Part shown: in pieces, positions 4,089 to 49,504 of the stretch | How the letters are laid out: the number at the start of each line of letters is the position of its first letter | Numbering within the stretch: the stretch's first letter is position 1 | From: Escherichia coli | Lineage (GTDB): Bacteria > Pseudomonadota > Gammaproteobacteria > Enterobacterales > Enterobacteriaceae | Reading direction: 5' to 3' (one strand) | Assembly: GCA_025544715.1 (NCBI GenBank) | Contig: GCA_025544715.1_4109.3 | DNA length: 64,000 bases | Program-made: the position numbers and the translations under genes | The notes under the pieces: generated by a model | The model's input: the letters and a program-made list of their open reading frames with translations, nothing else | What the model was told of the DNA's origin: nothing | Databases searched by the model: none

Positions 4089-4123
4089 TAATGTTTATAT
4101 ACATTATTTAGAGGTGCTAATAG

Positions 4124-4342
4124 TTATTTTGAATTATACAAGCAGTACAGGTATACCAATGGAGTAAAATGTTCGGAATCTATTATATATATTAACTGAG
4201 TAACATATATTCCATATAGATCTCGTGATTTATCTCTGTACATTAACAATGATTTATTTAAGTAAGGATCAACCCAGTACTTAATATCATTGTACTTCAA
4301 CGTGTTGTTACGGTAACCTGATAGTTTTGAATTTTTATTCAA
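4124..4342 (-). CDS. Hypothetical protein (72 aa)
   Basis: ORF in array. Confidence 0.35.
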   Translation of the reverse strand: MNKNSKLSGYRNNTLKYNDIKYWVDPYLNKSLLMYRDKSRDLYGIYVTQLIYIIDSEHFTPLVYLYCLYNSK

Positions 4343-33955: not shown

Positions 33956-35824
33956 TTATTTGTGCTGAATACGCTCACAACACTCTTGTTGTTTGCCTTT
34001 ATTGAATCCACGCGAAGAAGGATTACCCAAGTAACCAGAAACACGACGAATCACTGAGATTGTCTTCTCATTACGATTATCACATACCGGACAGTGGAAA
34101 CCATGTTTATCTACACTGAACTCACCCTGGAAGCCACATTCATAACAATGGTCAACGGGTTGGTTAATACCAAAATATGGTATCTTCGTGTAAGCATAGT
34201 TAACTAATGTTTCAAGTGCTTGAATGTTGTTTGCTAAGTTTGGAGATTCAACATAACTGATGTTTCCACCGTTACTTAGGTAAGCAAAGCCTTCTTCATA
34301 ACTCCATTTATCAAATGGAGAACTTTCTACCCATACTGGTTGATGAAAGGAATTTGTGATGTAATCACGTTTTAGTACTGACGGATATTTTGCTTCAATA
34401 CAACGTGCAAATTTATAACAAAGTGACTCTGCTGGAGTTCCATATAGACTAAAAGCTATATTACTCTCTTTTTTGAACTCATCACATTTTACTTTCATAT
34501 AATTCAGTACTGACATACAAAACTCCTTACTGATAGAACCAGTGAGGATTTCTGAACATTCAACAAGTCCAACATAACCAATACTAATACTAGCATAACC
34601 ATTGTAAAATAGCTTGTCAATGGTTTCTTCTGCACCTAAACGTGCTAATGCACCTTCCATGAACAAAATTGGATTTTGCTTTGCTTTAGTGCCTTTTAAA
34701 CGCTCTACGCGGTTCATCTGAGCACGATATGCAATATTCATATGCTCGTCTATCTTATCAAAAAACTCTCCGTCAGAAGCACTCTCAAGAGCAATTAGAG
34801 GTAAATTGATAGAAACCACACCTAAATTGAAACGACCGTTGTATTGTTCATTTCCATTAGAATCTTCCCATTTTCCTAAGAATGAACGACAGCCCATCGG
34901 TGTTACCGCAGTACTACTACTTCCAGTCACTTTGTGATTTAATGGTACGGAAACAAAGTCAGGGTAGATTCGTTTTGATGCACAACGCATAGCTAACTGT
35001 TTAAGGTCATAATTACTATCATTGGTATTCATGTTTATACCATCTTGTAAAAAGAAAATTACTTTAGGAAACACTGGAGTAATCTTATCTTTACCTAAAC
35101 CATTCTCATGAACTTTTAAGTACTGTTCAGTGATTAATTTACCAAATTTAGAAGTGTTAAGACCTAAACTAAGAGAAATAAATGCAGCTTGACCATTAGT
35201 ACTAATCATTGAATTAGTTTGGTAAAGTAATGTTTGGCAGCCATCGTATACTTCTTTTCGTAGTTCTTCTTCAATGAATTCATCACTTAGATTATATTTC
35301 TTTTGTTTTTCTAACAGCTTATCCCATGACTTTTGAACGTAAGGTTCTAATCCGACATCAATGTGAGCCAAAGATTGACCACCATACTGGGAACTGGCAA
35401 CAGCTTGGACAATTTGTGTCAGTACTGTACATGCTACACTAAAACTCTTTGGTTCTTCAATTTTAGCACAACCAATGGTGAATCCATTTTTTAGCATATC
35501 TGGGTAGTTAACTAAGCAACAGTTGGTTAATGGGCTGATATAGTAGTCTAAATCATGGATATGACCATAACCATCATTATGCCACTGCATTAGCTCATTT
35601 GGAATAACATCTTGTGAATAATGCTTAGATAGGATACCTGCAAGTAAATCCCTGTGTGTATTGACGCATTTCGCATCTTTGTTCGCATTTTCGTTTGTAA
35701 GATCAGTATTGCTCTGATTGAGGAAATTCGTTACGTCAGTATATAATTTATCTAATTGCATTGTACATTCCTTGTATTTTGAAATCATCTGGGGGTGAAG
35801 ATATTTAATATCACCAGACAACAT
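33956..35824 (-). CDS. nrdD: Anaerobic ribonucleoside-triphosphate reductase
   Basis: C-terminal zinc ribbon CYECG...CPVC and glycyl-radical motif RRVSGYLG; uninterrupted 622 aa. Confidence 0.9.
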   Translation of the reverse strand: MLSGDIKYLHPQMISKYKECTMQLDKLYTDVTNFLNQSNTDLTNENANKDAKCVNTHRDLLAGILSKHYSQDVIPNELMQWHNDGYGHIHDLDYYISPLTNCCLVNYPDMLKNGFTIGCAKIEEPKSFSVACTVLTQIVQAVASSQYGGQSLAHIDVGLEPYVQKSWDKLLEKQKKYNLSDEFIEEELRKEVYDGCQTLLYQTNSMISTNGQAAFISLSLGLNTSKFGKLITEQYLKVHENGLGKDKITPVFPKVIFFLQDGINMNTNDSNYDLKQLAMRCASKRIYPDFVSVPLNHKVTGSSSTAVTPMGCRSFLGKWEDSNGNEQYNGRFNLGVVSINLPLIALESASDGEFFDKIDEHMNIAYRAQMNRVERLKGTKAKQNPILFMEGALARLGAEETIDKLFYNGYASISIGYVGLVECSEILTGSISKEFCMSVLNYMKVKCDEFKKESNIAFSLYGTPAESLCYKFARCIEAKYPSVLKRDYITNSFHQPVWVESSPFDKWSYEEGFAYLSNGGNISYVESPNLANNIQALETLVNYAYTKIPYFGINQPVDHCYECGFQGEFSVDKHGFHCPVCDNRNEKTISVIRRVSGYLGNPSSRGFNKGKQQECCERIQHK

Positions 35825-35898: not shown

Positions 35899-35920
35899 GA
35901 AAAAGCACCACTAGGGTGCT
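35899..35920 (-). terminator. Rho-independent terminator upstream of nrdD
   Basis: Hairpin GCACC-loop-GGTGC then T5. Confidence 0.55.
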
Positions 35921-36037
35921 TTAAAGTACTGCTAATATAACAACTGCCCAAATTAACAGTAATACATTGGTTGGGGCTGAAAAAATCATATATGCAGCAA
36001 TTGCACTACAACCTATGACAAGTTTAGCTAGTCTCAT
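35921..36037 (-). CDS. Small hydrophobic peptide (38 aa), not in ORF track
   Basis: Own translation MRLAKLVIGCSAIAAYMIFSAPTNVLLLIWAVVILAVL; GGAG RBS; terminator immediately after. Confidence 0.3.
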   Translation of the reverse strand: MRLAKLVIGCSAIAAYMIFSAPTNVLLLIWAVVILAVL

Positions 36038-36438: not shown

Positions 36439-36798
36439 TTATTCAGGATCTTTGTTTTTATCAACTGTGTTGTTTTTATTCAAATCAATTTGTAAAGCCA
36501 TTGCAGCTTCAGCATTTTCTTCATGTGTGCCATTGAATTTATACCCATTCTTAATGAGATTCACTGTGTAGTACTTATTATAAAGAAATGCCCAAACGAT
36601 CATCGCAATAGTACCTACAATCCAAAAAGACACTGCGTTTAGGATGAAGTAAATTACAAATGCACCAATGAACGTAATAAAGTCACCACGGAACAATGCA
36701 GGGAAAGGTCCAAAAAATAATGTAGTCCAAGAAAAACCAAAGAAACCATCTTTGCGTTGTCCTACATTTTCATTTTTTAAAGAAATTGTTTTAGCCAT
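36439..36798 (-). CDS. Membrane protein (start likely MAKTISL at 36798)
   Basis: Two TM helices; motif GFSWTTLFFGPFPALFRG. Confidence 0.45.
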   Translation of the reverse strand: MAKTISLKNENVGQRKDGFFGFSWTTLFFGPFPALFRGDFITFIGAFVIYFILNAVSFWIVGTIAMIVWAFLYNKYYTVNLIKNGYKFNGTHEENAEAAMALQIDLNKNNTVDKNKDPE

Positions 36799-36808
36799 TT
36801 TTAATCTC

Positions 36809-37030
36809 CTACTTTTTATTTGGGTTTGGTATGCAGTACACAAATACTAAATGATTAAAATGTTCTGTATTCGCATACTTTGCTAAGTCGGTTATGATGA
36901 AGTTTGTATCTTTAAATCTGCCATCATTGAATGTTGTGATTTGAAAACGTAGTTCAGGTGCAAAAATATAATAATAGAATATATCATTTACACACCCAAC
37001 AGTATGTTTAGCATATCTTTCAATTTTCAT
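36809..37030 (-). CDS. Hypothetical protein (73 aa)
   Basis: ORF in array. Confidence 0.35.
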   Translation of the reverse strand: MKIERYAKHTVGCVNDIFYYYIFAPELRFQITTFNDGRFKDTNFIITDLAKYANTEHFNHLVFVYCIPNPNKK

Positions 37031-37395
37031 GTGTGGATGATCTCTTTTACCCCGTATTCATAGATTGCCAATGAGCAAATCTCACAAGGTTTTGCTGGAA
37101 CTGGAATTCCATCTTTACTTACACGAGCAATCAGAAGAGTATGAACTTCAGCACGTGCAGCAAGTAAACATGAAATTTCAGCATGAAGAAACTCACCTTG
37201 TGGTCGCCCAGCACGAATTGCGAAACCCTTCTGTACTGGGTGAGTCTGTGTATAAGAATTTGTGCGAGTTGCTAGTACTCTACCTTTTTTATCAAGTGCA
37301 CGAGCAATAACACGATACCGTTTGTAATTTCCTACTTGTTCAATAGGCGGCATCTGGCGTAATTCTTCGATTAGTTTCTCCAATTTACTATTCAT
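37027..37395 (-). CDS. Compact cytidine/dCMP-deaminase-fold zinc-binding protein
   Basis: HAE...PCEIC zinc-binding motifs with ~24 aa spacing. Confidence 0.55.
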   Translation of the reverse strand: MNSKLEKLIEELRQMPPIEQVGNYKRYRVIARALDKKGRVLATRTNSYTQTHPVQKGFAIRAGRPQGEFLHAEISCLLAARAEVHTLLIARVSKDGIPVPAKPCEICSLAIYEYGVKEIIHT

Positions 37396-38018
37396 AAGTC
37401 TAAGTCTATACCTTTTTCAATAGATTTCTCTAGAACCCAAAGTTTACATTCTTCACTCTCCAAATGTATCTTTGCCTCTTTCTGTTGTTCTATTGTACAA
37501 GACTTTATGAATTCACGCAAGGCTTCTATCGTATTTTTTAAATTTTTTATATCATCGATAATTTTTTCTTTGGTTTCTTCATCGATTACACATGAACTCC
37601 AACTGTGTCGTTCCTCCCAAACAGTTTTAGTAGGATTATAAATTGATGGAGTAGATTTGAATGCATGGATCTTATTAAAGGTATCGTCCGCTTCTTGTTG
37701 GGTGTAATCACCATATGTTCTTAGCACATTTTTGTATAATTCATCAATGGCCTCTTCATACGTATCACCACCACAATCCAATTGATAATCATGTGCTTGT
37801 ACCCATTCGTCGTCTTGCTCAATATACATTGGTGAAAGAAATTCTACCCAAAATTGATTCTTTGTATTCAATGCTTTGAAATCTTCAATTCGATTTGTCA
37901 TTGGACACACATCATGAGGTTCAATATCAATCCTAGCTGGAACCATATCTTTGTTTATGAATTTAGGATGACCCAAAATCCACCAGTACTTTTCCGATGT
38001 AGTCATAATAATCTCCAA
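37392..38018 (-). CDS. Hypothetical protein (208 aa)
   Basis: ORF in array. Confidence 0.45.
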   Translation of the reverse strand: MEIIMTTSEKYWWILGHPKFINKDMVPARIDIEPHDVCPMTNRIEDFKALNTKNQFWVEFLSPMYIEQDDEWVQAHDYQLDCGGDTYEEAIDELYKNVLRTYGDYTQQEADDTFNKIHAFKSTPSIYNPTKTVWEERHSWSSCVIDEETKEKIIDDIKNLKNTIEALREFIKSCTIEQQKEAKIHLESEECKLWVLEKSIEKGIDLDL

Positions 38019-38052
38019 TTAAAAAGTACTGCCCGTGATGGCAGTACTGATG

Positions 38053-38989: not shown

Positions 38990-39645
38990 ATAAACCTACT
39001 TTTTGATTTATGTAATGCAATTTGTACTCGTGTAATGAACTCACGCTGTACTTCTTCAGCACTGTATCCTTCATATTGTGTCTTGAAAAGTTCCATTGCT
39101 TTTAGTGCCATCTGTACAGAAATGTCTGTAATACTTTCTGTACTGGTGCTTTCAAATACGTTTTTGAGAGTTAGTTCACCATCACAAACATCATCAACTA
39201 CAACTGGGGTATTGTTTTGTTCATCAATGTAACGTAAAGCTTTGTACTCTGCTTTTGTTAGATTTTCATACCAACGTGGGTGGTGGAACAAATCATGCAT
39301 TGTAACTTTTGCTGCTTCCATGAGAAGTAATAGCTCTTCATTTCTGCGAATATGTTTTTCTTCACCTTTATGATTTTTGTAAGTATATGCACAACGCATA
39401 ATGGCTAATCGAACTTCACCTGCTTTGGTGATAGTGTATGAATGTATTGCATTATCATAATCACTTTCCCATTTCTGACCAGCATATTCGTACCAAAGTT
39501 CATTAGTTTCCCATTTAATGAAATCAAATTCTAACAAACTGTCAATCAACTTAGCCAAATTACCACTGTACTCACGGCTAATGATATTGAAACCACCATT
39601 GTACTTTGCAAGGTACAGAATCTTTTCTTGAGTTACATTTTTCAT
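38986..39645 (-). CDS. Hypothetical protein (219 aa)
   Basis: ORF in array. Confidence 0.45.
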   Translation of the reverse strand: MKNVTQEKILYLAKYNGGFNIISREYSGNLAKLIDSLLEFDFIKWETNELWYEYAGQKWESDYDNAIHSYTITKAGEVRLAIMRCAYTYKNHKGEEKHIRRNEELLLLMEAAKVTMHDLFHHPRWYENLTKAEYKALRYIDEQNNTPVVVDDVCDGELTLKNVFESTSTESITDISVQMALKAMELFKTQYEGYSAEEVQREFITRVQIALHKSKSRFI

Positions 39646-39983
39646 TACATGTAATCCTTGATGTATTTTAGCAGTTTAGATTTCTCTTCGGTACTTAATG
39701 ATTTCTTGTTCATTAAATGTTTCATTTCTTGACGTTCAATTTCTTCACATCTTTTAGATTCAGCTTCAATTCGTGTATTATATTCTTCGTCAGTTTCTTC
39801 TCTGGTCCAAATTACATTGTATCCATGAAAACCGCCATAACCACTGTCTGGTGAAAGACTAATGTGACCGTTATATTCAGCACGATACTTATTAAGAGTG
39901 TCAATAAAGGTATCAATGCCACACGGTTCAATTTCAATATAACCAATCACTACAGTAACGTCAATTTTGTTCATAAAGTTCAC
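39645..39983 (-). CDS. Hypothetical protein (112 aa)
   Basis: ORF in array. Confidence 0.45.
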   Translation of the reverse strand: MNFMNKIDVTVVIGYIEIEPCGIDTFIDTLNKYRAEYNGHISLSPDSGYGGFHGYNVIWTREETDEEYNTRIEAESKRCEEIERQEMKHLMNKKSLSTEEKSKLLKYIKDYM

Positions 39984-40001
39984 CTATAAAATTAGGGAGC
40001 A

Positions 40002-40559
40002 TTAGCTCCCTTTGTATTGATGTTTACGTTTAGTACTGTATTTCCAGCCAGTACTGTGTCTTGTTCTGATATCGTCCCAATACGATGGTAATGAACGCAT
40101 CTTACGTCTTCCACGTATATCAGGTTCCCCCTCATCCTTCAGTACTGCACAAGCCATACGACGCTCTTGTTGAGTCTTAGGACGCTTGTATCGGGAGTGG
40201 TTATGTTTGTACATATACGAACGCTTATGTCGCCATTCCGTATCACGAGCTTTGCGTTTATGTTCCCAGTACTCATTATAGAGTATCATGTATTCACCCA
40301 TAAGTAAATCAGGAGATACAAGTAATCCTTTTTCAGTACAAAGATAATAACCCACAAACTCTTCTGGGAACATTTCGTAATAGAAACGGTTCTTCCAAAA
40401 AGTTTCACGATTCTTTTTGTTGAATTCTGCTAAATCAAATTTCATCTTACTGTGGAAACGATCTATCCCTTGATGGTCAGCAATGTATTGAAGTAGATCG
40501 TCTACAATCTCAACTTTACCAGAATCGTGATACAACGTAAATGTTTGGTCAAAAAACAT
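40002..40559 (-). CDS. Hypothetical protein with basic C-terminus (185 aa)
   Basis: ORF in array. Confidence 0.45.
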   Translation of the reverse strand: MFFDQTFTLYHDSGKVEIVDDLLQYIADHQGIDRFHSKMKFDLAEFNKKNRETFWKNRFYYEMFPEEFVGYYLCTEKGLLVSPDLLMGEYMILYNEYWEHKRKARDTEWRHKRSYMYKHNHSRYKRPKTQQERRMACAVLKDEGEPDIRGRRKMRSLPSYWDDIRTRHSTGWKYSTKRKHQYKGS

Positions 40560-40654
40560 ATGAAATCTCCTTTAAGTTAAAATAACCTAATGGAAAGTCA
40601 TTCTTCCTTTAATACATGTTCTCATGATTTGTTCCTTTTGTCAAGATATAGATA

Positions 40655-40681
40655 TAAAAAATCCCTGCCAAAAGACAGGGA
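40655..40681 (-). terminator. Rho-independent terminator
   Basis: Hairpin TCCCTG-loop-CAGGGA then T6. Confidence 0.55.
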
Positions 40682-40785
40682 CGAAAAACTGAAATAACAC
40701 ATGGAGTTCTTTTTAATTTAATAAAAAGTATTATTATTCTTATAAAAGTATTTATTAAGAACTCCACAATATGGCTTCAAATGAA

Positions 40786-40974
40786 TCAAAAACCTTTCTG
40801 AGCTACTAGTTCACGGTACTGTGCACGAGTTAGTACACCTTGTTTGCGTAGAGCTTGTAGACCGGATAGGGTTTCACTCTTACGTTGTTCGTACATACGT
40901 TGTTCTTTGGATTGAATAACTTTCTCTTTCTTAACTTTTGCTACTGGTTCTTGTTTCTTAGGTTGTTTAGCCAT
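40786..40974 (-). CDS. Small basic protein (62 aa)
   Basis: Lys-rich N-terminus; ORF. Confidence 0.4.
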   Translation of the reverse strand: MAKQPKKQEPVAKVKKEKVIQSKEQRMYEQRKSETLSGLQALRKQGVLTRAQYRELVAQKGF

Positions 40975-41042
40975 TTTATATCTCCTTCTGTATTATGATA
41001 ACAACATTATATCATGTATGGGACATAATGTCCCATACAATA

Positions 41043-42482
41043 TTACATATTTTCTTCAGCAAATTCAGCCAGTGGTGAACGAACAACACCTTCTAGTTCG
41101 ATGACACGACAACCTGCCCAGTCTTTAAACTTCTCAGTTACATAAGTCAAACCACTGTTAACTGGACTAATAAACTTACTGTCAATCTGACTCAAGTTAC
41201 CCATAATTACTACTTTACAGTTTAACCCTGCTCGTGTCAAGATGGTTTTTGCTTGTGCAGGTGTAATGTTTTGGAATTCATCAACTACTAGAATAGTGTT
41301 GGTGAATGAACGTCCACGTACAAAGTTTAGTGCTTTAAATTGAATAACATTACGTTTCATAATCTCTTCAATACTACCTTGTGGGTTAGCATCATCTTTA
41401 TGAAGAAACTCTAACGCATCAATCGCGGCTCCACAGAATGGAATCACTTTTTCTGCTTCTGAACCTGGCAAGAAACCAATATCTTCAAACTGTGAGTCTT
41501 GAGTTTTAGAGAAGATGATTCGGTCGTATTTACGTTTTTCCAGTACTAATTCCAATGCAGTAGCAATCGTAATTAGTGTTTTACCAGTACCAGCAGAACC
41601 TAGCAGTACTGTTAGATGTACATCAGGATCGAGAATACTGTTGATAGCGAGTGCTTGTTGGATATTCTTTGCTTTAATATCCCATACTTTAGCACGTAAA
41701 GCCACTGATTGTCCAATGTCTTGGAATACCAAAATATCTTCTGGTGTTAGTGTTCCATCATCTTCCTCAATTGCTGATTGTCCTTCGTACACAAATAATA
41801 CGTCAGCATCATCATATAGGTAATCACCGATGCATAGATTTTGTGGAAGCAGATGTTCAATCAAGCTTTTAGAAATGTAATGATACAAACGACGACCAAC
41901 TTGTTCGGATTGAATATTAGTATTGGTTAAGTTGCTGTATACTTCCCAAAAATTGATTTCCAGATGGTGTTGACCAATGTGAATCAAATCACTATCACCA
42001 ATAACAATATCATGGCGATAATCTTGTACCTCGACACCATAACTTAGTGCTTTGATACGCATGTTGATATCACGAGTTACCAGTACTGATTCTGTTGCTA
42101 AAGCTACCAGAATGATTTTATCATCAGGTACAGTACTTTTGAGAAGGGTTTGAACTTTCTCTTCTGTACCTTTAGTACGAATTAGTGCCTCAGCTTCTTC
42201 GTTTGTAATAACAAACAATTTGCTATCAGGATTCATATTGGTATGAACATCAGCAATATTAACACCAGTACTACTAATCTCGTCATGTGATGCATCTGCA
42301 ATAATTGCTTCAATGTTACGAATAGCAACACGTGCATCGCGTGAAACATCTACATTACGACTCTTAATCGAATCTAATTCTTCCAGTACTGTAAATGGTA
42401 GAATGATTGCAGCACCATCAAAAGCAATAGATGCATTAGGGTCAGATAGTAGTACGTTTGTGTCAATTGTATATTTTTTCAT
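41043..42482 (-). CDS. phoH: PhoH-family ATPase with N-terminal PIN domain (PhoH2-type)
   Basis: Walker A GSAGTGKT; N-terminal PIN-like YTIDTNVLLSDP. Confidence 0.7.
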   Translation of the reverse strand: MKKYTIDTNVLLSDPNASIAFDGAAIILPFTVLEELDSIKSRNVDVSRDARVAIRNIEAIIADASHDEISSTGVNIADVHTNMNPDSKLFVITNEEAEALIRTKGTEEKVQTLLKSTVPDDKIILVALATESVLVTRDINMRIKALSYGVEVQDYRHDIVIGDSDLIHIGQHHLEINFWEVYSNLTNTNIQSEQVGRRLYHYISKSLIEHLLPQNLCIGDYLYDDADVLFVYEGQSAIEEDDGTLTPEDILVFQDIGQSVALRAKVWDIKAKNIQQALAINSILDPDVHLTVLLGSAGTGKTLITIATALELVLEKRKYDRIIFSKTQDSQFEDIGFLPGSEAEKVIPFCGAAIDALEFLHKDDANPQGSIEEIMKRNVIQFKALNFVRGRSFTNTILVVDEFQNITPAQAKTILTRAGLNCKVVIMGNLSQIDSKFISPVNSGLTYVTEKFKDWAGCRVIELEGVVRSPLAEFAEENM

Positions 42483-42542
42483 AAAACATCCTTGAGTTAT
42501 GAGTACATCCTTGTACTCGACTAATGTTATTGACTCGGATTA

Positions 42543-42845
42543 TTACATATTTGGTTCGTATTCAACATAGCAACGTGAACCTCGAACCTTTTCTTCCCAG
42601 CACTCCTGGTAAACAAGTTGACCAATTGAAACTGGTTCTCTTGATAGTCCATTACGTACTTCACCACTTTGGGTTTTATACATGAATGAACATTTGGACT
42701 CGCTACATTGTCCTAAACTAACAACTTCTGCGGTATTGTAGTGAATGTTGGTACGCTTAGTGTTCTCGTGATACTGTCCGAACCAAAGAACTCCTGCACC
42801 TAACAGAACAGTACAAATAAGACTTTTAATGTGTGTTTGAATCAT
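42543..42845 (-). CDS. Membrane-anchored small protein (100 aa)
   Basis: N-terminal TM helix; Cys-rich. Confidence 0.4.
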   Translation of the reverse strand: MIQTHIKSLICTVLLGAGVLWFGQYHENTKRTNIHYNTAEVVSLGQCSESKCSFMYKTQSGEVRNGLSREPVSIGQLVYQECWEEKVRGSRCYVEYEPNM

Positions 42846-43162
42846 AATGCGTTAAATCCATTGTTTAAGTATGTTTCAATATTAATTTTACCAACAGGAT
42901 TACTACTGTGAACAAAGTACTCAAACGGTTCTTTAATATTATTATCAAACATATAATCAATAAGAAACTTAGCAAAAGAATATCCAGTCTTTTCGTCTTC
43001 GCTCACATCACCCAAGTCATGGTCGAATGATACAAATGCTGGAATTCCATTTTCAATAACATATTCACATGCACTTTTAAAGTCACGACATACCACCATA
43101 TCTTGGTTTGGATAATATAGATTTGCATCACGAATATCATCCAAAAACATTGAGTAAGACAT
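42842..43162 (-). CDS. Cyclic-phosphate processing receiver (CPR) domain protein
   Basis: Pattern FLDDIR...VSFDHDLG...TGYSFAKFL matches CPR signature as recalled. Confidence 0.55.
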   Translation of the reverse strand: MSYSMFLDDIRDANLYYPNQDMVVCRDFKSACEYVIENGIPAFVSFDHDLGDVSEDEKTGYSFAKFLIDYMFDNNIKEPFEYFVHSSNPVGKINIETYLNNGFNAL

Positions 43163-43171
43163 GTTAAACTC

Positions 43172-43723
43172 CTATAGATAACTAATTAGTAAGTTTTCTT
43201 TTTGAACCAGATACTCCAATTCTTGTTTTGCTGTACCGATGAAGTTCTGTGTCATAAGATTATTATATCCCGCTTCTCGATTTTGTCCCTTAGAATAACG
43301 AGAAATATGACATAAATTTACACCAGCAACTTCAGCACTCGCATGTTTAGCATTAGTGTATCCATCTCTAATGTGTTTCAACTCGTCATAGCTTACTTCA
43401 TAGCTAAAACTATGACTGTTTGCACCTGGGTAAATTTCAAAAGTTTTGAGTGGTCGGAGATGGGAAACAAAAATATTGTAATCCATTTCTTCTTGAACTT
43501 CACGACGCAATGCATCTTCTAATGAGATATCAGTACTTTCTACGGTTCCACCACATCCACCAAGAAGACCATCCCATCGTAATTGTAGTAAAACTAAATT
43601 TACTTCTGGTATATCATTCAACTCATAGTTTTTGTAAGGGTTGCATTTTCTTGCAAAGAAATAACAAAATACAAAATTTGCACGTGAGCCATATTCACCA
43701 AAGGGAACTTCTTTAACACTCAT
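43172..43723 (-). CDS. Nudix-like hydrolase (second copy)
   Basis: Degenerate Nudix box ...RREVQEEMDY; operon with Sir2 and CPR. Confidence 0.5.
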   Translation of the reverse strand: MSVKEVPFGEYGSRANFVFCYFFARKCNPYKNYELNDIPEVNLVLLQLRWDGLLGGCGGTVESTDISLEDALRREVQEEMDYNIFVSHLRPLKTFEIYPGANSHSFSYEVSYDELKHIRDGYTNAKHASAEVAGVNLCHISRYSKGQNREAGYNNLMTQNFIGTAKQELEYLVQKENLLISYL

Positions 43724-44478
43724 TTCATACGTTCCTTAATTATAGTCTCTAGATGTGGTATTGCTTTGGTTGCTGGCTTGATAACTTTTTCATTAAACAA
43801 AAAATCATTATCATTTTTACGAATGTTAACATTAACACTATAACATGGCAATGCTGCTGCTAATCTCGACCATACCAGTACTGTATCGCTACTACCAATT
43901 ACAATAACTGTATCATTTTCATTAAGAGATTTCAACACATTATTTCGTTCTTCGTAAATTGGTAAGCGAATACCATCAACATAACGATGATATTCTCCAA
44001 TCATTACTACATTTGGTTTAGCAAAAACATCATGCTTTGGTATGTATGGTTCGTATCCGCAGTTAATAACATTATAATCATCGGAATTAATACTATAATT
44101 TTCAATAACTTCGCACAAGTTTCCATGAAGTTTAAGCTCATGACCACCAATACGAGTATAAAGATCATCCATGTTAGAAGTCATATGAAGGAAGCAATCA
44201 CCATATTGATCTTCTAACGATTTTATAAAATAATGCATTGCATTGGGTTCGCATTGTCCCAATTTTACACGTAATGTATTATAGAAGGAATGAACAACGT
44301 GATATTTTGTAGTTAAACTAGCAATGTTACATACATCATTAATTTTAAATGTATCCCACAAACCATCATCAAATCGAAAAGGTTCCATACCACTTTCAAC
44401 GGAAAGTCCTGCACCTGATATAATCAGTAATCGTTTTTTACCTTCATTGCTTATAAATTTTTCTGATATCATATTCAA
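43720..44478 (-). CDS. Sir2-family (sirtuin/CobB-like) NAD-dependent enzyme
   Basis: GAGLSVESGMEPFR, PNAMH, TSNMDDLYTRIG, HGNL align with CobB GAGISAESGIRTFR, PNAAH, TQNIDNLHERAG, HGEL. Confidence 0.75.
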   Translation of the reverse strand: MNMISEKFISNEGKKRLLIISGAGLSVESGMEPFRFDDGLWDTFKINDVCNIASLTTKYHVVHSFYNTLRVKLGQCEPNAMHYFIKSLEDQYGDCFLHMTSNMDDLYTRIGGHELKLHGNLCEVIENYSINSDDYNVINCGYEPYIPKHDVFAKPNVVMIGEYHRYVDGIRLPIYEERNNVLKSLNENDTVIVIGSSDTVLVWSRLAAALPCYSVNVNIRKNDNDFLFNEKVIKPATKAIPHLETIIKERMK

Positions 44479-44481
44479 TCC

Positions 44482-44676
44482 TTATAAAAAACCAATTAAA
44501 TATATTGATAATAACAGAATGATTCCAATATGATAGGCATACATAAAATTATTATCTTTGTGATAACCTTTGGATGTCAAGTCCCTATATAAGCATTTAG
44601 CATTGTTATAAATTACAACAATAGAAAAAACTATAAAAAAACTCAAAACCCATTCATAAATTGTGTATGCCATCAT
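44482..44676 (-). CDS. Small membrane protein (64 aa)
   Basis: Two hydrophobic helices. Confidence 0.35.
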   Translation of the reverse strand: MMAYTIYEWVLSFFIVFSIVVIYNNAKCLYRDLTSKGYHKDNNFMYAYHIGIILLLSIYLIGFL

Positions 44677-44694
44677 CTATTCTCTCTTATAATT

Positions 44695-45291
44695 TTAATA
44701 CTTTAAAACATCAAACTCTGCACTTACACTAGTTACATTATCACTGACAATTTTAAAAATTGATTTGATGCGTTCATGTAGTGGTACTTTTGATTCATTC
44801 TCAACTTCAATATATGCTTGCATTGCTGCAATAGCATGATATGTCCCGCTACCTACGGCTGTGATTCGTGTTTTCGGTTGAAGAACTGAAAAATCTTCTT
44901 GAACTTCATAAATTGTATGATTGTGGAGAATGATGAACTGACCACCACCTACTTCTTGTGAAGGATCACGAGAACCCCATTCCTCTTTGAACATTTGACG
45001 AATAATAGGAATAACTTTCAGTACTAAGTACTGTGGGAACGTCTCATTGGCATCTTGCTGTGGTAGATTCAAACTGTAAGTAAGAAGTTGACCCATACGG
45101 AATGATGTGGTGTAACCAATCGCCATAATTTCTTTTGTACGGGTCAAACCAGCATCATCATTGATTTTAATGAATTCTTTCTCAAATACTTTAGGCTCAG
45201 TTTGAACTGATTTTGTGAAACCATTACTTCCTAGTTTGTCCCCTGCAATAAAAGAAGTTACACCATCAGTGTGTGCAATGATACATGTCAT
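44695..45291 (-). CDS. HslV/proteasome-beta-like Ntn-hydrolase (start MTCIIA at 45291)
   Basis: N-terminal Met-Thr, IAGD and GSGTYHAIAA blocks parallel HslV; ATGA overlap with upstream gene. Confidence 0.5.
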   Translation of the reverse strand: MTCIIAHTDGVTSFIAGDKLGSNGFTKSVQTEPKVFEKEFIKINDDAGLTRTKEIMAIGYTTSFRMGQLLTYSLNLPQQDANETFPQYLVLKVIPIIRQMFKEEWGSRDPSQEVGGGQFIILHNHTIYEVQEDFSVLQPKTRITAVGSGTYHAIAAMQAYIEVENESKVPLHERIKSIFKIVSDNVTSVSAEFDVLKY

Positions 45292-45548
45292 AAAATAGCT
45301 CCAATTGCAAATAAAGTTGTATATAAAATATAAATCAATGTACCTAATAACATTAGACACACCAAATATGATGTTGCCAGAACATAATAAATTATTGCTT
45401 CAAACTTTGAATTGAACTTCATTGTTGTGTTATCAATAAAGCCATTTTTGTAATCTTTGTAAATGAAAACTGTTAGGAAAAGTACAGTAATATACATCAC
45501 TACTGTAGCATAAAAAATAATAGATGTCAAATTTTGGATGTTTGTCAT
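45288..45548 (-). CDS. Membrane protein (86 aa)
   Basis: Hydrophobic helices. Confidence 0.4.
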   Translation of the reverse strand: MTNIQNLTSIIFYATVVMYITVLFLTVFIYKDYKNGFIDNTTMKFNSKFEAIIYYVLATSYLVCLMLLGTLIYILYTTLFAIGAIL

Positions 45549-45618
45549 AGTTATATAATCTCAATATAATTAATAACAAAGGAAGTACAACATAATCATC
45601 CTGTTATTTTAATTATTT

Positions 45619-46227
45619 TTATTGGTTTACTGATCCATATCGGATTAGTTCAGTTTTTGTCAAGATAACAACATCTTCACCACGAGAACGGCTAACTTTA
45701 TATAGAACGTCTGGTGGAATTCCATTTGCAGAATATAGTGTAAATAGAAAACCTACTTTAGTTGCCATTTCTTCAGTAAAAGTTGATAGCTGCCTAACTG
45801 ATACAAAAGAATTATCACCGTCTTTAACATTACTTTTAATAGAAATGTTATGAAGTCCCAGTACTGAGCGATTTATCATGTATCGCTTTTCAAAAGCTAC
45901 ACTAAAGAATACCACAGTACATGCTGAGTTGCAATACCTAGAAACAATTAAATTTATACCATTGTCTCTAACGAAGTTTGCCATTTTAATTCCAGCATCA
46001 AAATCACCACCTGGTGATGTGATTGTAATGGTATCATAGTGTTCTTTATCATACAACTCCATCATACGCTTGAGTGATCCATCTGTAATATCTGAGATGA
46101 AATATACATTACGTGTTTCTGGATTGTACTTTATCACATTTTTACGTTCAACACCAGCACTGGCTGGAAAATTTATCAACATCAGAAGCATTACTGCTTG
46201 TACTACCTCAAGCCATAGTCTTTTCAT
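45619..46227 (-). CDS. Secreted ClpP/S49-fold serine peptidase-like protein
   Basis: Signal-peptide-like N-terminus; ITSPGGDFDAG motif. Confidence 0.5.
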   Translation of the reverse strand: MKRLWLEVVQAVMLLMLINFPASAGVERKNVIKYNPETRNVYFISDITDGSLKRMMELYDKEHYDTITITSPGGDFDAGIKMANFVRDNGINLIVSRYCNSACTVVFFSVAFEKRYMINRSVLGLHNISIKSNVKDGDNSFVSVRQLSTFTEEMATKVGFLFTLYSANGIPPDVLYKVSRSRGEDVVILTKTELIRYGSVNQ

Positions 46228-46255
46228 AACAAATCCTTAATTTTGGTTAGGAAGA

Positions 46256-46263
46256 TATAAATA
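46256..46263 (+). promoter_or_regulatory. T4-late-promoter-like box TATAAATA (plus strand)
   Basis: Exact octamer ~150 nt upstream of plus-strand gene start. Confidence 0.25.
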
Positions 46264-46409
46264 ATATAGTACTTAAACACTTAAGTCAAACTTTTTCTGT
46301 ACTTAACTCAAATTTCCCTCATCAGATAATCCCCTTAGTACAATCACTGTGAAGATTCTATCACAAACCCATACCAAATGTAAAGCTTTTTTTATAAGGA
46401 GTGCCCTTC

Positions 46410-48335
46410 ATGGGAAAACCAATTGCAGGACAAGACCAATTTCCATTCACTATAGGTGGATATTTAGTTGATGGTGCAAACATAAAAGGTACAACATATG
46501 TAAAATCGTTGTACATCTACAAACAGCGTTCCTCTGATTTGTATGATTTAATGGATTCAAATGGAACAATATATCGTTTTATTCGTATTGTTGGATATGG
46601 TCAAGATGGTAACAGATTAAATTATTTTACACCAGCAGAAGAAATTGTACCAAATCTGGCGACCAATACATTTTTTATAAAAGTTCAAGATGCTGAAAGA
46701 AATATATTTTCATTTGTTAGATTGTACCAATTAAATAAAATAATAACATTCGATGGTGATTATATTTTTAGAAAAATAGATAAAGATCGTTATCTAAGTG
46801 GTGTGTTAATTCAACCATCATTAACTACATTACAAGTTGGTAAAACCAGTTCACTGCATTGTGTATTCTACCCTAATGATTACTATGATACTGATGGAAC
46901 TTGGTACATAAACGACCATTCTGATATAAATCCAGAAATACCTAGTAAGTATGCTAAAATCATAGAATATAATAAAAATGAAGTATCTATTGAAGGAACA
47001 TCGGTGGGTATGTCAATACTTTCATTTGTTCCTAAAAATAATAAATCCATAATTTCACATTCTCTTATTAACATTGTTAATGAAAATGTAGATATAGAAT
47101 ACATGGTTGCCGAAAGAAGTTCTCCATTTTTTAATCATTATATTGGCAATGAATGGACTATTCAAATAGTCACATATCCGTATGACGCGACTATACAATA
47201 CCCTCTTGAAATCGTAATCGATGCGGAAGTAGATCCTTATATGAAAATTGCCACTACCGAGTTAGTTGGAGTCTCTGAAAATAATAAAATATATACATTT
47301 AAATCAACACTTGAGCCAGATTTAGAATATTATATAGATTATTATCCACAAATCACCTTCACTATGAATGAACCTTACAAATTTAGTGCATTGTTTGAAA
47401 ATAAAATTTGTTTGTCTGGTTGGGAAAGATATTGTGAAAAAATTACCAGTCCTGGAAAGTTATTTTCTATTGATGAATATGTACGTCCAAACACGACTAA
47501 AACATTAAAATATTGGTTAATGAATGATTATGACCAACATATGTATCCAATACGTTCAACTGATGATGAAATTGCCACAATTGATGTAACAACTGGTATA
47601 TTGAGAACTTACGATAAAAGAGGAACAGTATCTTTCTATACAAATTATACTGATATAACTACTGGGGCCATTAGTCAAGATGAATATTTAGTTGGGAAAC
47701 TAACCGTTACAGACGATGTGTACGATTTAATCGAGGTAGAACCATCAAATATACAATATATGTTCCCAAATCAATCACAACAATTCACGTTAACTGGTTA
47801 TAGAGAAGGTTATCCAAATACATCTTTTAATGTTAATGTAAGTATGTTGAACAATTATGCAACTTCTTCAAACAATATCGTCACTATTAACGAAAATACA
47901 TCTAATAACTCTAGATTTAAGATAGTATCAGATTTCAATGGTAATTATAAAAACTTTAGTAGTATATATTCTAATCAAACACCATCTATTATAGTAAAAA
48001 CAAATCCAAATGATTTAACTCCAATACAAAGTATTGATGTTTCTGAAAATGAAATTTTATCTATAAGAATGGCTGAAGAAAATGAAATAGATGATTATAA
48101 AGTTAGTTTTTATCCAAAACCAAATTATTGTGTTAATTATGAACTTGAAATTGTATCATATGATAATACTATAATTGAAATATATGATAAAGAAAATGCA
48201 TTAAAAAACGGGCTAAATTATTATGGTAATATTATGTTATACATAACACCAAAAAGTCCTGGAAGTACCGAGATTGTTGTTAGATCTGTTCATTACCCAG
48301 ATGTACAACAATCTGTAAAAGTAGTTGTTTATTAA
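46410..48335 (+). CDS. Plus-strand large protein (641 aa from ATG 46410), possible virion decoration/adhesin
   Basis: AGGAG RBS 9 nt upstream; N-terminal ~110 aa paralogous to next gene; Asn/Ser/Thr/Tyr-rich. Confidence 0.55.
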   Translation: MGKPIAGQDQFPFTIGGYLVDGANIKGTTYVKSLYIYKQRSSDLYDLMDSNGTIYRFIRIVGYGQDGNRLNYFTPAEEIVPNLATNTFFIKVQDAERNIFSFVRLYQLNKIITFDGDYIFRKIDKDRYLSGVLIQPSLTTLQVGKTSSLHCVFYPNDYYDTDGTWYINDHSDINPEIPSKYAKIIEYNKNEVSIEGTSVGMSILSFVPKNNKSIISHSLINIVNENVDIEYMVAERSSPFFNHYIGNEWTIQIVTYPYDATIQYPLEIVIDAEVDPYMKIATTELVGVSENNKIYTFKSTLEPDLEYYIDYYPQITFTMNEPYKFSALFENKICLSGWERYCEKITSPGKLFSIDEYVRPNTTKTLKYWLMNDYDQHMYPIRSTDDEIATIDVTTGILRTYDKRGTVSFYTNYTDITTGAISQDEYLVGKLTVTDDVYDLIEVEPSNIQYMFPNQSQQFTLTGYREGYPNTSFNVNVSMLNNYATSSNNIVTINENTSNNSRFKIVSDFNGNYKNFSSIYSNQTPSIIVKTNPNDLTPIQSIDVSENEILSIRMAEENEIDDYKVSFYPKPNYCVNYELEIVSYDNTIIEIYDKENALKNGLNYYGNIMLYITPKSPGSTEIVVRSVHYPDVQQSVKVVVY

Positions 48336-48351
48336 TAAGAGGAAATAAAAT

Positions 48352-48729
48352 ATGAAAGCTATAGCAGCACAAGGTAAATTACCATTCAATATCGGCGGCT
48401 TTTGTGTAACCGCAGCTAATATAAACGGTGAATTGAAATATAACTTGAACATCTTTAATCAACGTTCTAGTTGTGTTTACGATCTTATCGACACTGATTT
48501 TAATGTTTATCGTTTTGTAACTATAACAAGTTTTGATAAAGATAAAATCAGATTAGACGCATCTAAAACTGCACTAGAGATTGCACCAACTTTAGCAAAA
48601 AATACTTTTTGTATTAAGATTGATGATAGTGCATTTGCCGAATCATTCCAGTTTCATAAAATTAAATTGAGTACTGGAGAAATGAAATATCACCCTTGGG
48701 ATTTGTATTATTGTAACATCCCTGGTTAA
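48352..48729 (+). CDS. Plus-strand protein (125 aa), paralog of N-terminal domain of 46410-48335
   Basis: AAGAGGA RBS; shared blocks PFxIGG..., RSSxxYDL, YRFxxI. Confidence 0.55.
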   Translation: MKAIAAQGKLPFNIGGFCVTAANINGELKYNLNIFNQRSSCVYDLIDTDFNVYRFVTITSFDKDKIRLDASKTALEIAPTLAKNTFCIKIDDSAFAESFQFHKIKLSTGEMKYHPWDLYYCNIPG

Positions 48730-48730
48730 C

Positions 48731-48760
48731 AAAAAAGGAGCCACAAGGCTCCTTTTTTTT
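48731..48760. terminator. Bidirectional terminator between convergent plus and minus genes
   Basis: Hairpin GGAGCC-ACAA-GGCTCC flanked by A6 and T8. Confidence 0.7.
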
Positions 48761-49016
48761 ATTCTACAGTATTAAGCTTCTGACAAATCATGTCAGCTTC
48801 TACTCGGTCTTTATAATAAATGGTAAATCCAAATCTACTTGTTACCCTTTTCTCACTACGGTGTATACAGTTTACAATATAGTACTTATTATTTTGTGCA
48901 GAAAAACGAACTTCATAATTTCGAAAATAAGTATTAGGTTCATCTATAGCAACTATATATAACATAAAAATGAAAAGCACTATTATTAGAAAAGCAATAA
49001 TAATTATTACTGTCAT
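48759..49016 (-). CDS. Small membrane protein (85 aa)
   Basis: N-terminal hydrophobic helix. Confidence 0.4.
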   Translation of the reverse strand: MTVIIIIAFLIIVLFIFMLYIVAIDEPNTYFRNYEVRFSAQNNKYYIVNCIHRSEKRVTSRFGFTIYYKDRVEADMICQKLNTVE

Positions 49017-49504
49017 TTATCAAGACCCTTATCATAAATGCAATTAACAATAATTCCAGCATCTTCCAGTACTTTAATAGCTTCTGGTGGTGTACGAGGA
49101 TAATTTTTGAGATAAATTACACGTGAAATACCACTACCCGCAATCAACTTAGAACAAGTATAACATGGTTGTAGTGTTGTGTAAAGAGTAGCACCTTGAC
49201 GTTCAGTAGGAGAACTATAGAGTAAAGCGTTCATTTCGGCATGGATTTCATGAATATTACTCCACTCATGATGTTGATGCTTTGCTTCATCACTAACCCA
49301 GTCTTGAAAAGACCCATCATTTACTAAGTGTTGATTCACGTCACAGCAATTTGGTTGTTTTGATGGAGTACCATTGTATCCAGTACTCAATACTCGATTA
49401 TTTTTAACAATAACACAACCAACTTTTTGTGAAATACATTTACTTTCCTCAGCAACTACTTCTGCTATCTTCAACCAAGTCGTATGTTTCATTATAAGCT
49501 CCAA
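49013..49504 (-). CDS. cd: dCMP deaminase
   Basis: HAEMNAL...PCYTCSKLIAGSGISRVIY and N-terminal VGCVIVKNNRVLSTGYNG. Confidence 0.8.
   Translation of the reverse strand: MELIMKHTTWLKIAEVVAEESKCISQKVGCVIVKNNRVLSTGYNGTPSKQPNCCDVNQHLVNDGSFQDWVSDEAKHQHHEWSNIHEIHAEMNALLYSSPTERQGATLYTTLQPCYTCSKLIAGSGISRVIYLKNYPRTPPEAIKVLEDAGIIVNCIYDKGLDK

Follow-up and report, generated by a model that had tools for sequence, protein, structure and literature searches.

Results

The DNA analysed here (64,000 nucleotides, referred to as the window) belongs to a 121Q/PBECO4-like (121Q/RaK2-type) jumbo coliphage with a GC content of 33.5%. On its minus strand, at positions 37027..37395, it carries a real and conserved zinc deaminase gene, the HAE/PCxxC motif pair of which is not a chance occurrence. 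The encoded protein represents a distinct, phage-specific and structurally minimal clade, which by its clade features is neither a true dCMP deaminase nor TadA. We estimate a probability of about 0.4 that it acts as an unregulated cytosine-nucleotide deaminase.

A minimal zinc deaminase in addition to a canonical dCMP deaminase

The open reading frame starts with ATG, ends with TGA and, upon translation, yields 122 amino acids; it is the orthologue of 121Q gp490, in the RaK2-group and phiKZ gp260 family. The earlier note on this DNA had described a 122-residue protein with H-A-E and P-C-x-x-C motifs, without giving its strand, which is minus. Both motifs were located in the sequence. H71-A72-E73 (37177..37185, minus strand) lies where helix 2 begins and supplies the zinc-ligand His and the catalytic Glu, and P103-C104-E-I-C107 (37075..37089, minus strand) lies where helix 3 begins and supplies the two zinc-ligand Cys. 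All conservation and motif counts given here were made on 158 diverse family members, in which H71 was found in 157, A72 in 152, P103 in 157, and E73, C104 and C107 in every sequence. The gene is under strong purifying selection, with a pN/pS of 0.08 versus the 121Q orthologue.

[quoted passage not shown] PHROG 174, named ‘dCMP deaminase’, also matched the protein (8.5e-13). The other profiles suggested in the earlier note stayed far below their cutoffs, i.e., 13.6 bits versus 27 for MafB19-like and at most 21 bits versus 150 for NCBIfam TadA. The protein shows the three-layer alpha/beta/alpha fold with the strand order 2-1-3-4(-5), as well as the zinc site of the CDA fold ([HC]xE on helix 2 and PCxxC on helix 3). 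In the model, HAE and PCxxC each occupy the N-terminus of their helix (2 and 3, respectively); thus, the spacing of the motifs, named beforehand as the point on which the assignment could fail, is compatible with the fold. The word ‘minimal’ was also accurate, as the chain stops right past strand 4, 15 residues after PCxxC, with a terminal I-H-T. An artefactual absence of strand 5 was considered and rejected: in-frame readthrough yields no strand, the next ORF is separate and conserved, and dozens of clusters end identically.

A six-frame scan revealed exactly two ORFs with the CDA fold in the window, in agreement with the earlier separation of the small protein from a full dCMP deaminase. The second ORF (49013..49504, minus strand) is a canonical dCMP deaminase of the ComEB/T4 Cd type, with 78 bits for PF00383 and ComEB as the best NCBIfam match (71.6 bits). 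It encodes 163 amino acids when read from TTG, its homologues being annotated from an ATG located four codons in, and it displays all five of the dCMP-deaminase clade synapomorphies. The possibility that the small protein is a recent duplicate of this enzyme was rejected (24% identity, E-value of 7e-4, misaligned motifs). Existing records label both genes ‘dCMP deaminase’, and two dCMP deaminases had already been noted in the CBB paper, while the automated JGI label for many relatives is TadA. The routine database label of the small deaminase is probably wrong.

The small deaminase defines a phage-only family

The 122-residue protein has 4253 representative homologues at E ≤ 1e-3. At 50% identity, the family splits into more than 1000 clusters; its members are single-domain proteins of 96-166 amino acids and are restricted to phages (195 viral loci versus two MAG contigs among approximately 185,000 species genomes). 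It has its own signature, N46-S-Y-T-Q-T51-H52-P53-V-Q55 in the window protein (37231..37260, minus strand), with N conserved in 155, H in 149, P in 148 and Q in 139 of the 158 members. The corresponding regular expression, N-x(3-6)-[TS]-H-P-x-[QM], matched the window protein and 139/158 family members, versus none of three canonical dCMP deaminases; the region forms an extra helix in the AF2 model. A near-invariant Arg, R91 (37123..37125, minus strand; 155/158 by conservation and regular expression), ends strand 3, and an insert of 11 residues connects it to PCxxC. Strand 2 ends with Asn46, which is conserved (155/158) beside the catalytic residues and occupies the position of the sugar/base contact in nucleoside, nucleotide and tRNA deaminases. 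Conserved basic positions (K/R26, K/R28, K50, R91 and K102) lie around the predicted active-site entrance. The window protein thus belongs to the family by its signature, R91, single domain, very basic character (pI of 9.54) and phage origin.

The family core ends after strand 4, whereas the long-form relatives are predicted to gain an antiparallel strand 5. For one of these, P0048, a strand 4-5 hairpin, absent from the window protein, was predicted from the AF2 model only. Strand 5 has been gained or lost often (at least 31 parsimony changes among the 158 members), and the short forms occur in many clusters and phage groups. Tyr is frequent at position 121 (104/158), and helix 4 is never present in the family. 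Domain fusions, including those with targeting or RNA-binding domains, were absent from 449 profile hits and from the longer representatives. In the literature on phiKZ gp260, jumbo-phage, phage anti-defence and phage tRNA deaminases, we found no characterisation of, and no biochemical data for, any member.

The family is also marked by a strong positive charge. The median pI was 9.57 with a net charge of approximately +9, in comparison to a median pI of 6.8 for neighbouring proteins of the same size, and pI values above 9 were found in 90-97% of the family members versus approximately 30% of such neighbours. The canonical enzymes encoded beside family members were not comparably basic, and genome composition does not account for the family-wide charge.

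Genomic neighbourhood

The deaminase gene overlaps both of its neighbours by ATGA junctions. The TGA of the upstream 208-residue ORF (37392..38018, minus strand; phrog_16370, function not assigned) overlaps the deaminase ATG, and the ATG of the downstream 73-residue ORF (36809..37030, minus strand), which encodes no missing strand 5, overlaps the deaminase TGA. Only the RaK2-like clade keeps the 208-residue ORF beside the deaminase. NrdD, the class III ribonucleotide reductase, is encoded 1.2 kb downstream (33956..35824, minus strand), as given by the 121Q and E9.1 annotation and used here as context only, and the deaminase lies within a block co-directional with nrdD/nrdG. Terminator-like hairpins, assigned by consensus match only, were found upstream of the six-gene cassette holding the deaminase (38025..38048, minus strand) and between the small-ORF cassette and nrdD (35902..35922, minus strand); three such hairpins were found in the region versus 1.0 ± 1.0 expected. 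A common operon with nrdD was considered and is weakened by the hairpin at 35902-35922.

Across the family, RNR genes (NrdA/B, NrdD, glutaredoxin) occurred within 5 kb of family genes in at least five of 23 lineages. The canonical dCMP deaminase adjoins the small one, with overlapping stop and start codons, in L027-L030 and lies approximately 1 kb off in L034. In a complete phiKZ-like genome, the family member is the sole deaminase with the CDA fold, and thymidylate synthase, DHFR, RNR and dTMP kinase are also present. The carrier loci are AT-rich (median of 38% GC, with 74/80 below 45%). No conserved partner or immunity gene was found across lineages, the neighbours being PHROGs without assigned function.

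The association with tRNA genes depended on the sampling. Of the 80 loci with the closest relatives of the window protein, 16% had a tRNA gene within 100 bp and 25% had one within 1 kb, the corresponding values for loci of canonical dCMP deaminases being 1% and 2%. Several family genes sit within tRNA arrays, e.g., in the L040 and L061 lineages, with flanking genes for Trp, Pro, Cys and Met tRNAs and long ‘Ile-UAU’ genes, and 215/217 neighbouring tRNAs share the orientation of the deaminase gene. When 120 loci were sampled without bias, by means of the signature pattern, the values were 2% (within 100 bp), 5% (1 kb) and 15% (5 kb), versus 1%, 2% and 10% in the control, and the contrast at the level of lineages was modest (31/101 versus 6/52). 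A family-wide tRNA linkage, seemingly strong in the first 80 loci, was rejected, as it was lost in the unbiased 120 and weaker by lineage. No tRNA genes were found in the 64-kb window or near any of 14 RaK2-like loci. An A34 was present in 5/217 neighbouring tRNAs and in none of the seven tRNAs of the complete phiKZ-like carrier genome, none of which is for Arg. The host tRNA-Arg(ACG) is a possible substrate for a TadA-type enzyme.

Discussion

The preferred reading and its rivals

The earlier note had offered three options without choosing among them: a nucleotide deaminase, a TadA-like tRNA-editing enzyme and a nucleic-acid-editing enzyme. The first and the last have become the two leading explanations. 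The TadA-like option fails by clade membership and is weak as a function. The note had not foreseen that a canonical dCMP deaminase would be ruled out as well, that the small protein would fall into a huge clade confined to phages and uniformly very basic, or that some branches lie within tRNA arrays.

From the combined evidence we infer that the small deaminase is catalytically active, together with its substrate class and physiological role; our preferred, tentative reading is a cytosine-nucleotide deaminase free of allosteric control. In the CDA-fold mechanism, a His and two Cys hold a zinc-bound water and a Glu shuttles the proton. His71, Cys104 and Cys107 would hold this water and Glu73 would serve as the shuttle in a hydrolytic deamination that turns a cytosine nucleotide in free form, be it dCMP, dCTP or a ribonucleotide, into its uracil counterpart. 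The enzyme would lack the control by dCTP/dTTP to which the hexameric canonical enzyme is subject, and the extra C-to-U/T flux might help a phage of 33.5% GC to replicate its genome in a host richer in GC. This reading is favoured by the invariant catalytic residues and Asn46, by the profile matches to dCMP deaminases and PHROG 174, and by a weak CDA match. The genomic context also points to it, namely the nrdD/nrdG block, the recurrence of RNR genes, the adjacent canonical enzymes, the phiKZ-like phage with a sole deaminase and the AT-rich carriers, as does the action of characterised phage PF00383 enzymes on mononucleotides. Against it stand the lack of all five dCMP-deaminase synapomorphies, the predicted hairpin of the long-form relatives, the branches in tRNA arrays and the terminator-like hairpin before nrdD. 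The proximity to RNR could reflect shared early or middle gene regions, and a mononucleotide enzyme would not need the strong basicity of the whole family. Since a canonical dCMP deaminase coexists in the window phage, a plain dCMP deaminase would be redundant.

That coexistence points to a different substrate and, together with the charge, it makes a polynucleotide deaminase a serious possibility, though still short of an even chance. Such a very small, basic enzyme would edit C (or A) in ssDNA or in RNA, tRNA being the most plausible RNA target, and would serve translation takeover, phage tRNA processing or an attack on host nucleic acid. The family-wide positive charge, the basic positions ringing the predicted active-site entrance and the open core devoid of strand 5, helix 4 and C-terminal elements are consistent with it. 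Elsewhere in the superfamily, the hairpin and the truncation occur in toxin clades that target nucleic acids (Iyer et al. 2011, Table 1), and a related phage PF00383 enzyme acts on ssDNA. The proximity to tRNA in the 80 closest loci, the embedding in tRNA arrays and the co-orientation argue in the same direction, but the association is near control in the unbiased loci and modest by lineage, and neither the window nor the RaK2-like loci hold a nearby tRNA. Moreover, no toxin-clade Pfam model matched, the relatives show no targeting or RNA-binding fusion, and a mutator that attacks DNA or RNA without targeting would put the phage at risk. It is conceivable, if rather doubtful, that the family members, built on a four-stranded zinc core of approximately 100-122 residues, are polynucleotide deaminases smaller than any other known in nature, with which the phages edit tRNA, other RNA or host ssDNA. 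This would explain the charge, the open core, the coexistence with the canonical enzyme and the embedding in tRNA arrays.

The remaining explanations are considerably less probable. The protein is unlikely to deaminate another small molecule, such as a nucleotide of host immune signalling (e.g., a cyclic one with cytosine or adenine), a modified-base precursor, a pterin or a purine; this would make it an anti-defence or modification enzyme rather than a contributor to dTTP supply, but no partner gene is conserved across lineages and the profile matches point to deaminases of pyrimidine nucleotides or nucleosides. We consider it very improbable that the gene is a decaying or non-catalytic remnant whose truncated product only binds or is functionless: the canonical fifth strand is missing and strand 5 is often gained or lost, but the zinc and catalytic residues are near-invariant, selection is purifying, the four-stranded core is modelled confidently, short forms are widespread and truncated active clades exist in the superfamily. 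A TadA-type adenosine-34 deaminase producing the wobble inosine in tRNA is largely refuted by the lack of EPC.MC (0/158), of strand 5 and of the two anticodon-loop-binding C-terminal helices, by the low NCBIfam TadA score, by the rarity of A34 among neighbouring tRNAs and by the lack of tRNA genes in the window.

The ‘dCMP deaminase’ and ‘TadA’ labels fail the clade tests, and reconstructions of jumbo-phage nucleotide metabolism that count ‘two dCMP deaminases’ may therefore be wrong. The family is very large and phage-restricted, and it includes gp260 of the model phage phiKZ. If its members act on nucleotides, they would give AT-rich phages a pared-down and probably unregulated way of making dUMP/dTTP; if they act on RNA or DNA, they would represent a new class of viral editing enzymes and an unusually compact base-editor candidate or scaffold.

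Comparison with known deaminases

The clade comparisons follow Table 1 of Iyer et al. 2011. The small protein shows none of the five synapomorphies of dCMP deaminases. The zinc-supported bihelical cap, recognised by regular expression in the large enzyme and in 0/158 family members, is replaced by a single-helix insert without Cys. The NxxP that ends strand 2, found in the large enzyme, in 3/3 canonical enzymes and in 5/158 members, corresponds to N46-x6-P53. HxExNA reads HAEISC in the small protein and HAEMNA in the large one (2/158 in the family), and TxxxT in strand 3 (3/3 canonical, 0/158 in the family) reads HTLLIAR. In dCMP deaminases, helix 4 and a strand 5 in parallel orientation follow the Tyr; both are absent from the small protein, and P0048 is predicted with the hairpin instead. 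The small protein shares the superfamily and the HAE/PCxxC zinc site with T4 Cd (1VQ2), S-TIM5 dCD (4P9C) and S. mutans dCD (2HVV), which were its best profile matches among solved structures (4.9e-5, 2.3e-6 and 3.8e-5, respectively). The dCMP deaminase/ComEB clade, likewise phage-encoded and acting in nucleotide metabolism, is the source of the database label of the small gene. The small protein is strongly basic and approximately 40-70 residues shorter than dCMP deaminases; thus, no allosteric dCTP/dTTP site is expected.

[quoted passage not shown] It has PCEICS instead of PCxxCR (16/158 members), lacks the strand 5 that ends with Glu in CDA, and carries a 17-residue helical insert before HAE. 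The CDA model TIGR01354 gave 14.8 bits versus a cutoff of 113.65, and a cyanophage family member weakly matched tetrameric cytidine deaminase (1.5e-5); overall, matches to the NCBIfam/Pfam subfamily models (CDA, ComEB, TadA) were weak and mutually inconsistent, and every CDA score fell well short of its family cutoff. TadA/ADAT2 proteins have EPClMC where the small protein has AKPCEIC, and their helix 4, strand 5 and two C-terminal RNA-binding helices with conserved E and F are all absent from it.

The hairpin topology and the truncation after strand 4 occur in toxin clades that target nucleic acids, among them YwqJ and BURPS668_1122 (Iyer et al. 2011, Table 1). Together with Bd3614 and XOO_2897, these clades provide a precedent for a fold tolerating the loss of strand 5. 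The Bd3614 clade shares this loss and a basic residue before strand 1 with the small protein, but its HAExN occurs in only 2/158 members and Pfam Bd3614-deam gave 13.4 bits versus a cutoff of 38.5. YwqJ shares three architectural features, but its Gx[CH]xE motif was found in 0/158 members and the Pfam YwqJ model did not match the small protein even at E ≤ 10. The MafB19 pattern, as tested ([KR]xxCxxC), was also absent (0/158). The clades devoid of strand 5 comprise toxins of bacteria or proteins from Bdellovibrio and algae; the small family, in contrast, is phage-only and stand-alone.

The PF00383 enzymes PBCV-1 bi-DCD (7FH4) and the 5mC-selective mSCD-B5 act on non-canonical substrates and have thymidylate-synthase homologues within 3 kb; compared by neighbourhood, the small family lacks such homologues among its top 25 recurrent neighbour clusters. 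The phage PF00383 enzymes characterised so far all act on mononucleotides, and some of them also act on ssDNA (preprint 10.1101/2024.12.05.627091).

The two deaminase genes of the window

The gene of the small deaminase was located on the minus strand (37395 to 37027), with an ATG start, 122 codons and a TGA stop, and the sequence encodes the zinc motifs H71-A-E73 (37177-37185, minus) and P103-C-E-I-C107 (37075-37089, minus). This agrees with the earlier note, which had read the ORF as a minimal deaminase with HAE and PCxxC motifs. Among the profiles named there, dCMP_cyt_deam_1 (PF00383) matched at 30.2 bits, above its gathering cutoff of 25, whereas the MafB19-like and TadA profiles scored far below theirs, as did the Bd3614-deam Pfam model. 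PHROG 174, 'dCMP deaminase', was matched at 8.5e-13. The separate full dCMP deaminase claimed at 49013-49504 (minus) was confirmed as well, with 78 bits for PF00383 and ComEB as the best NCBIfam match. A six-frame motif and HMM scan of the 64-kb window found exactly these two ORFs of the cytidine-deaminase (CDA) fold; aligned pairwise, they shared 24% identity (E 7e-4) with their motifs misaligned. Comparison with the 121Q orthologue of the small deaminase gave a pS of 0.45, a pN of 0.036 and a pN/pS of 0.08, and the gene is therefore under purifying selection. We consider it highly probable (about 0.9) that the protein is a zinc deaminase under selection with its catalytic site intact, and that its minimal clade, confined to phages, is neither dCMP deaminase nor TadA.

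The window was 96% identical to Asteriusvirus-type jumbo coliphages, e.g., SHEFM2K, PBECO4 and 121Q, in which the small deaminase is 121Q gp490, labelled 'dCMP deaminase' in the record. Both deaminase genes carry that label in the phage E9.1 record, and many other records name the small protein hypothetical. One dCMP deaminase is given in the RaK2 paper and one in that on phAPEC6, two are noted in the CBB paper, and the paper on phage Sharanji, which is ~93% identical to the window region, names one tRNA-specific adenosine deaminase (PMC11895373). Judged by the distance of its gene from nrdD, that protein is probably the homologue of the large, canonical dCMP deaminase, so the label is likely a mis-annotation. 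A second deaminase in the 121Q-type group is not a new observation; the gene and a 'two deaminases' remark are already public. The literature search found no experimental work on the small deaminase or phiKZ gp260. Absent from the searchable literature are the failure of the 'dCMP deaminase' label in clade comparison, the membership of the protein in a very large family that is restricted to phages and has a signature of its own, the four-stranded core with an optional hairpin strand, the uniform basicity and the location of some branches inside tRNA arrays.

A large family of minimal phage deaminases

When 1.84 billion representative proteins were searched exhaustively with an HMM, 4253 passed E<=1e-3, of which 1008 also passed E<=1e-10; all of the best 150 of the 4253 matches were 96-166 aa long. 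A second profile search gave 449 matches, and the 120 listed were all single-domain proteins of 99-143 aa, automatically named in part 'TadA' and in part 'deoxycytidylate deaminase'. Longer members were few, their extra sequence being confined to low-complexity N-terminal extensions. Pattern and tblastn scans, with somewhat different search patterns for the two collections, located 195 family loci in IMG/VR versus only two in ~185,000 species genomes, both on MAG contigs. Cultured carriers included RaK2-like jumbo phages, phiKZ-like phages, T4-like cyanophages, Aeromonas Plateaulakevirus and Ralstonia RP13. In phiKZ gp260 (3998-4357 of locus L002), HSE replaces HAE and the protein ends just past strand 4.

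Across 158 diverse members, the conserved residues were N46, K50, T51, H52, P53, Q55, A59, H71-A-E73, R91, G96, K102-P-C104, C107 and Y/H121-T122. The small deaminase and 139/158 members carry the signature N-x(3-6)-[TS]HPx[QM], which all three canonical dCMP deaminases compared lack. The number of residues after PCxxC was bimodal, either 15-17, ending at strand 4 as in the window protein, or 25-29. In the predicted model of P0048, a long-form relative (pLDDT 84.7), strands 4 (119-124) and 5 (127-132) are modelled as an antiparallel hairpin joined by a turn of two residues. Short and long forms were intermixed in a rough NJ tree, which requires at least 31 changes by parsimony. Strand 5 therefore appears dispensable, though gene calling could have misplaced some of the metagenomic termini.

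Genomic neighbourhood

The small deaminase gene belongs to an extended run of minus-strand genes, in which nrdD and nrdG follow 1.2 kb downstream. Terminator-like hairpins at 38025-38048 and 35902-35922, identified by consensus match only, flank the six-gene cassette that includes it, and all the other genes of the cassette are without known function. One of them, a 134-aa ORF with long hydrophobic stretches (36439-36843, minus; phrog_4915), is suggestive of a two-pass membrane protein. The NrdD ORF (33956-35824, minus) spans 622 aa from the upstream ATG, versus 601 aa (1806 nt) in annotated orthologues; the true start is probably an internal Met. Between the two deaminases (~39600-49000, by homology to the 121Q and E9.1 loci, L001 and L090) lies a block of co-directional genes, which in these annotated relatives encodes PhoH-like, Nudix, Sir2-like, HslV-like and ClpP-like proteins; its Sir2 and Nudix pairing recalls NAD/ADP-ribose metabolism modules.

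No partner gene was conserved across lineages in 82 related loci. Ribonucleotide reductase (RNR) genes (NrdA/B, NrdD, glutaredoxin) recurred in at least 5/23 lineages. About four lineages shared a set made up of Amidoligase_2, a phiEco32-like COOH-NH2 ligase, Peptidase_C26/GATase-I and a class-II GATase, no more than 5 kb from the small deaminase (L022 8116-9186; L073 8251-9021; L018 3700-4332; L084 6084-7304; also L023 and L024/L031). In L027-L030, the stop codon of the small deaminase overlaps the start of a canonical ComEB-type dCMP deaminase immediately behind it (L027 4995-5737), and in L034 (3886-5761) the two are ~1 kb apart; this tandem is independent of the RaK2-like phages. A complete phiKZ-like genome (276 kb) carries the small deaminase as its sole CDA-fold deaminase, together with thymidylate synthase, DHFR, RNR, dTMP kinase and a dUTPase-fold dCTP deaminase. 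In HUST_1, a genome related to phiKZ, the gp260 orthologue is the only CDA-fold deaminase. Carrier loci were AT-rich (window 33.5% GC, median 38%, 74/80 below 45%); hosts of the cultured carriers have 50-67% GC.

Association with tRNA genes

Among the 80 IMG/VR loci closest to the window protein, a tRNA gene lay within 100 bp, 1 kb and 5 kb in 16%, 25% and 42%, respectively, compared with 1%, 2% and 10% for control canonical dCMP deaminase loci (same collection and flank) and 0%, 0% and 1% for a low-diversity set of NrdB loci. The small deaminase was inside a tRNA array in L040, L043, L045-49, L061-66 and L071; in L040 (4303-5420), the order on one strand is Arg, Ser, Gly, Thr, Trp, Pro, deaminase, Cys, with gaps of 0-11 bp. 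The effect shrank at lineage level, to 12/26 versus 4/20 at 60% identity (p=0.12) and 15/41 versus 6/52 at 80% identity (p=0.006), and to 2%, 5% and 15% at the same distances in an unbiased sample of 120 loci, drawn by a signature DNA pattern with the Lys codon fixed as AAA, HMM-confirmed throughout and not gene-centred. The linkage is therefore real in some branches and not general; none of the 14 RaK2-like loci had a tRNA gene nearby, and the window has none at all. Only 5/217 neighbouring tRNAs had an A34 anticodon, with none in the complete phiKZ-like genome, so classical wobble-inosine formation is not supported.

ARAGORN called 'tRNA-Ile(UAU)' genes of unusual length (91-94 nt), in many cases right beside the small deaminase and next to tRNA-Met(CAU) genes (L018 867-960; L020; L022 3111-3204; L061-L065 ~4866-4956 and ~5344-5435; L071 4870-4963), which may be class-II-like or intron-containing tRNAs decoding AUA. 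Odd anticodons in phage tRNA arrays near the deaminase were CUA (amber-reading, called 'Pyl'), Val(AAC), Ser(ACU) and Arg(ACG) (L057 2713-2788; L033 1307-1382; L046-L048 ~4112-4201; L081 4087-4163). Phage tmRNA genes were found in L027 (8064-8435) and L062 (5453-5796), with tag peptides ANDEVFALAA and ANENFALAA; the L027 gene adjoins a 17-tRNA array ~1.5 kb downstream of the small and canonical deaminase pair.

Charge and candidate substrates

The family was strongly basic, with a median pI of 9.57 (IQR 9.32-9.81), 97% of members above pI 8 and a median net charge of +9; the window protein has a pI of 9.54. For ORFs of 90-150 aa in these loci that do not encode deaminases, the median pI was 6.8 (~30% above 9), and three canonical dCMP deaminases had values of 6.4, 7.6 and 8.7. 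Basicity is a conserved family property that a plain mononucleotide enzyme would not need.

Our leading candidate substrate, a tentative one, is a free cytosine nucleotide, because of the nearest characterised relatives and the RNR and dCMP deaminase neighbourhoods, the role of sole CDA-fold deaminase in a thymidylate-synthesising phage, the AT-rich carriers, and how often phage PF00383 enzymes characterised to date have such an activity. The charge, the open core, the redundancy that a second canonical activity would bring and the tRNA arrays of some branches instead point to RNA or ssDNA, a possible although doubtful substrate. The two are not mutually exclusive, since specificity for triphosphates, and activity on ssDNA as well, have been shown for phage 'dCMP deaminases' in an NEB preprint (10.1101/2024.12.05.627091). 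A triphosphate preference, if true, would fit the basic active-site surroundings together with a metabolic role. Another small molecule is an improbable substrate, and a non-catalytic role is very unlikely for the selected gene. TadA-type activity, the tRNA-editing option of the earlier note, is the least credible, given the rarity of A34 tRNAs, the lack of EPC.MC in all 158 members and of the two C-terminal helices, which also exclude TadA membership.

Comparison with known deaminase clades

Sequence profiles placed dCMP deaminases nearest among solved structures, weakly (4P9C 2.3e-6, 2HVV 3.8e-5, 1VQ2 4.9e-5). A cyanophage member weakly matched tetrameric CDA (1.5e-5) and another member TadA (2e-4), both far under cutoff. 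In the clade definitions of Iyer et al. 2011 (PMC3239186, Table 1), the dCMP deaminase/ComE synapomorphies are a zinc-supported bihelical cap, NxxP, HxExNA, TxxxT and a Tyr followed by helix 4. All five were present in the large deaminase and none in the small one, which rules out membership of the latter; across the family, each occurred in 0-5/158 members. The PCxxCR motif of CDA is absent from the window protein and found in 16/158 members, and the motifs of Bd3614 (HAExN), YwqJ (Gx[CH]xE) and MafB19 ([KR]xxCxxC in the form tested) are also absent. The small deaminases are a distinct clade. Loss of strand 5 has precedent only in the Bd3614, XOO_2897, YwqJ and BURPS668_1122 clades (PMC3239186), and the family, with a predicted hairpin-type or four-stranded topology, resembles the nucleotide and tRNA enzymes in its HAE motif and strand-2 Asn.
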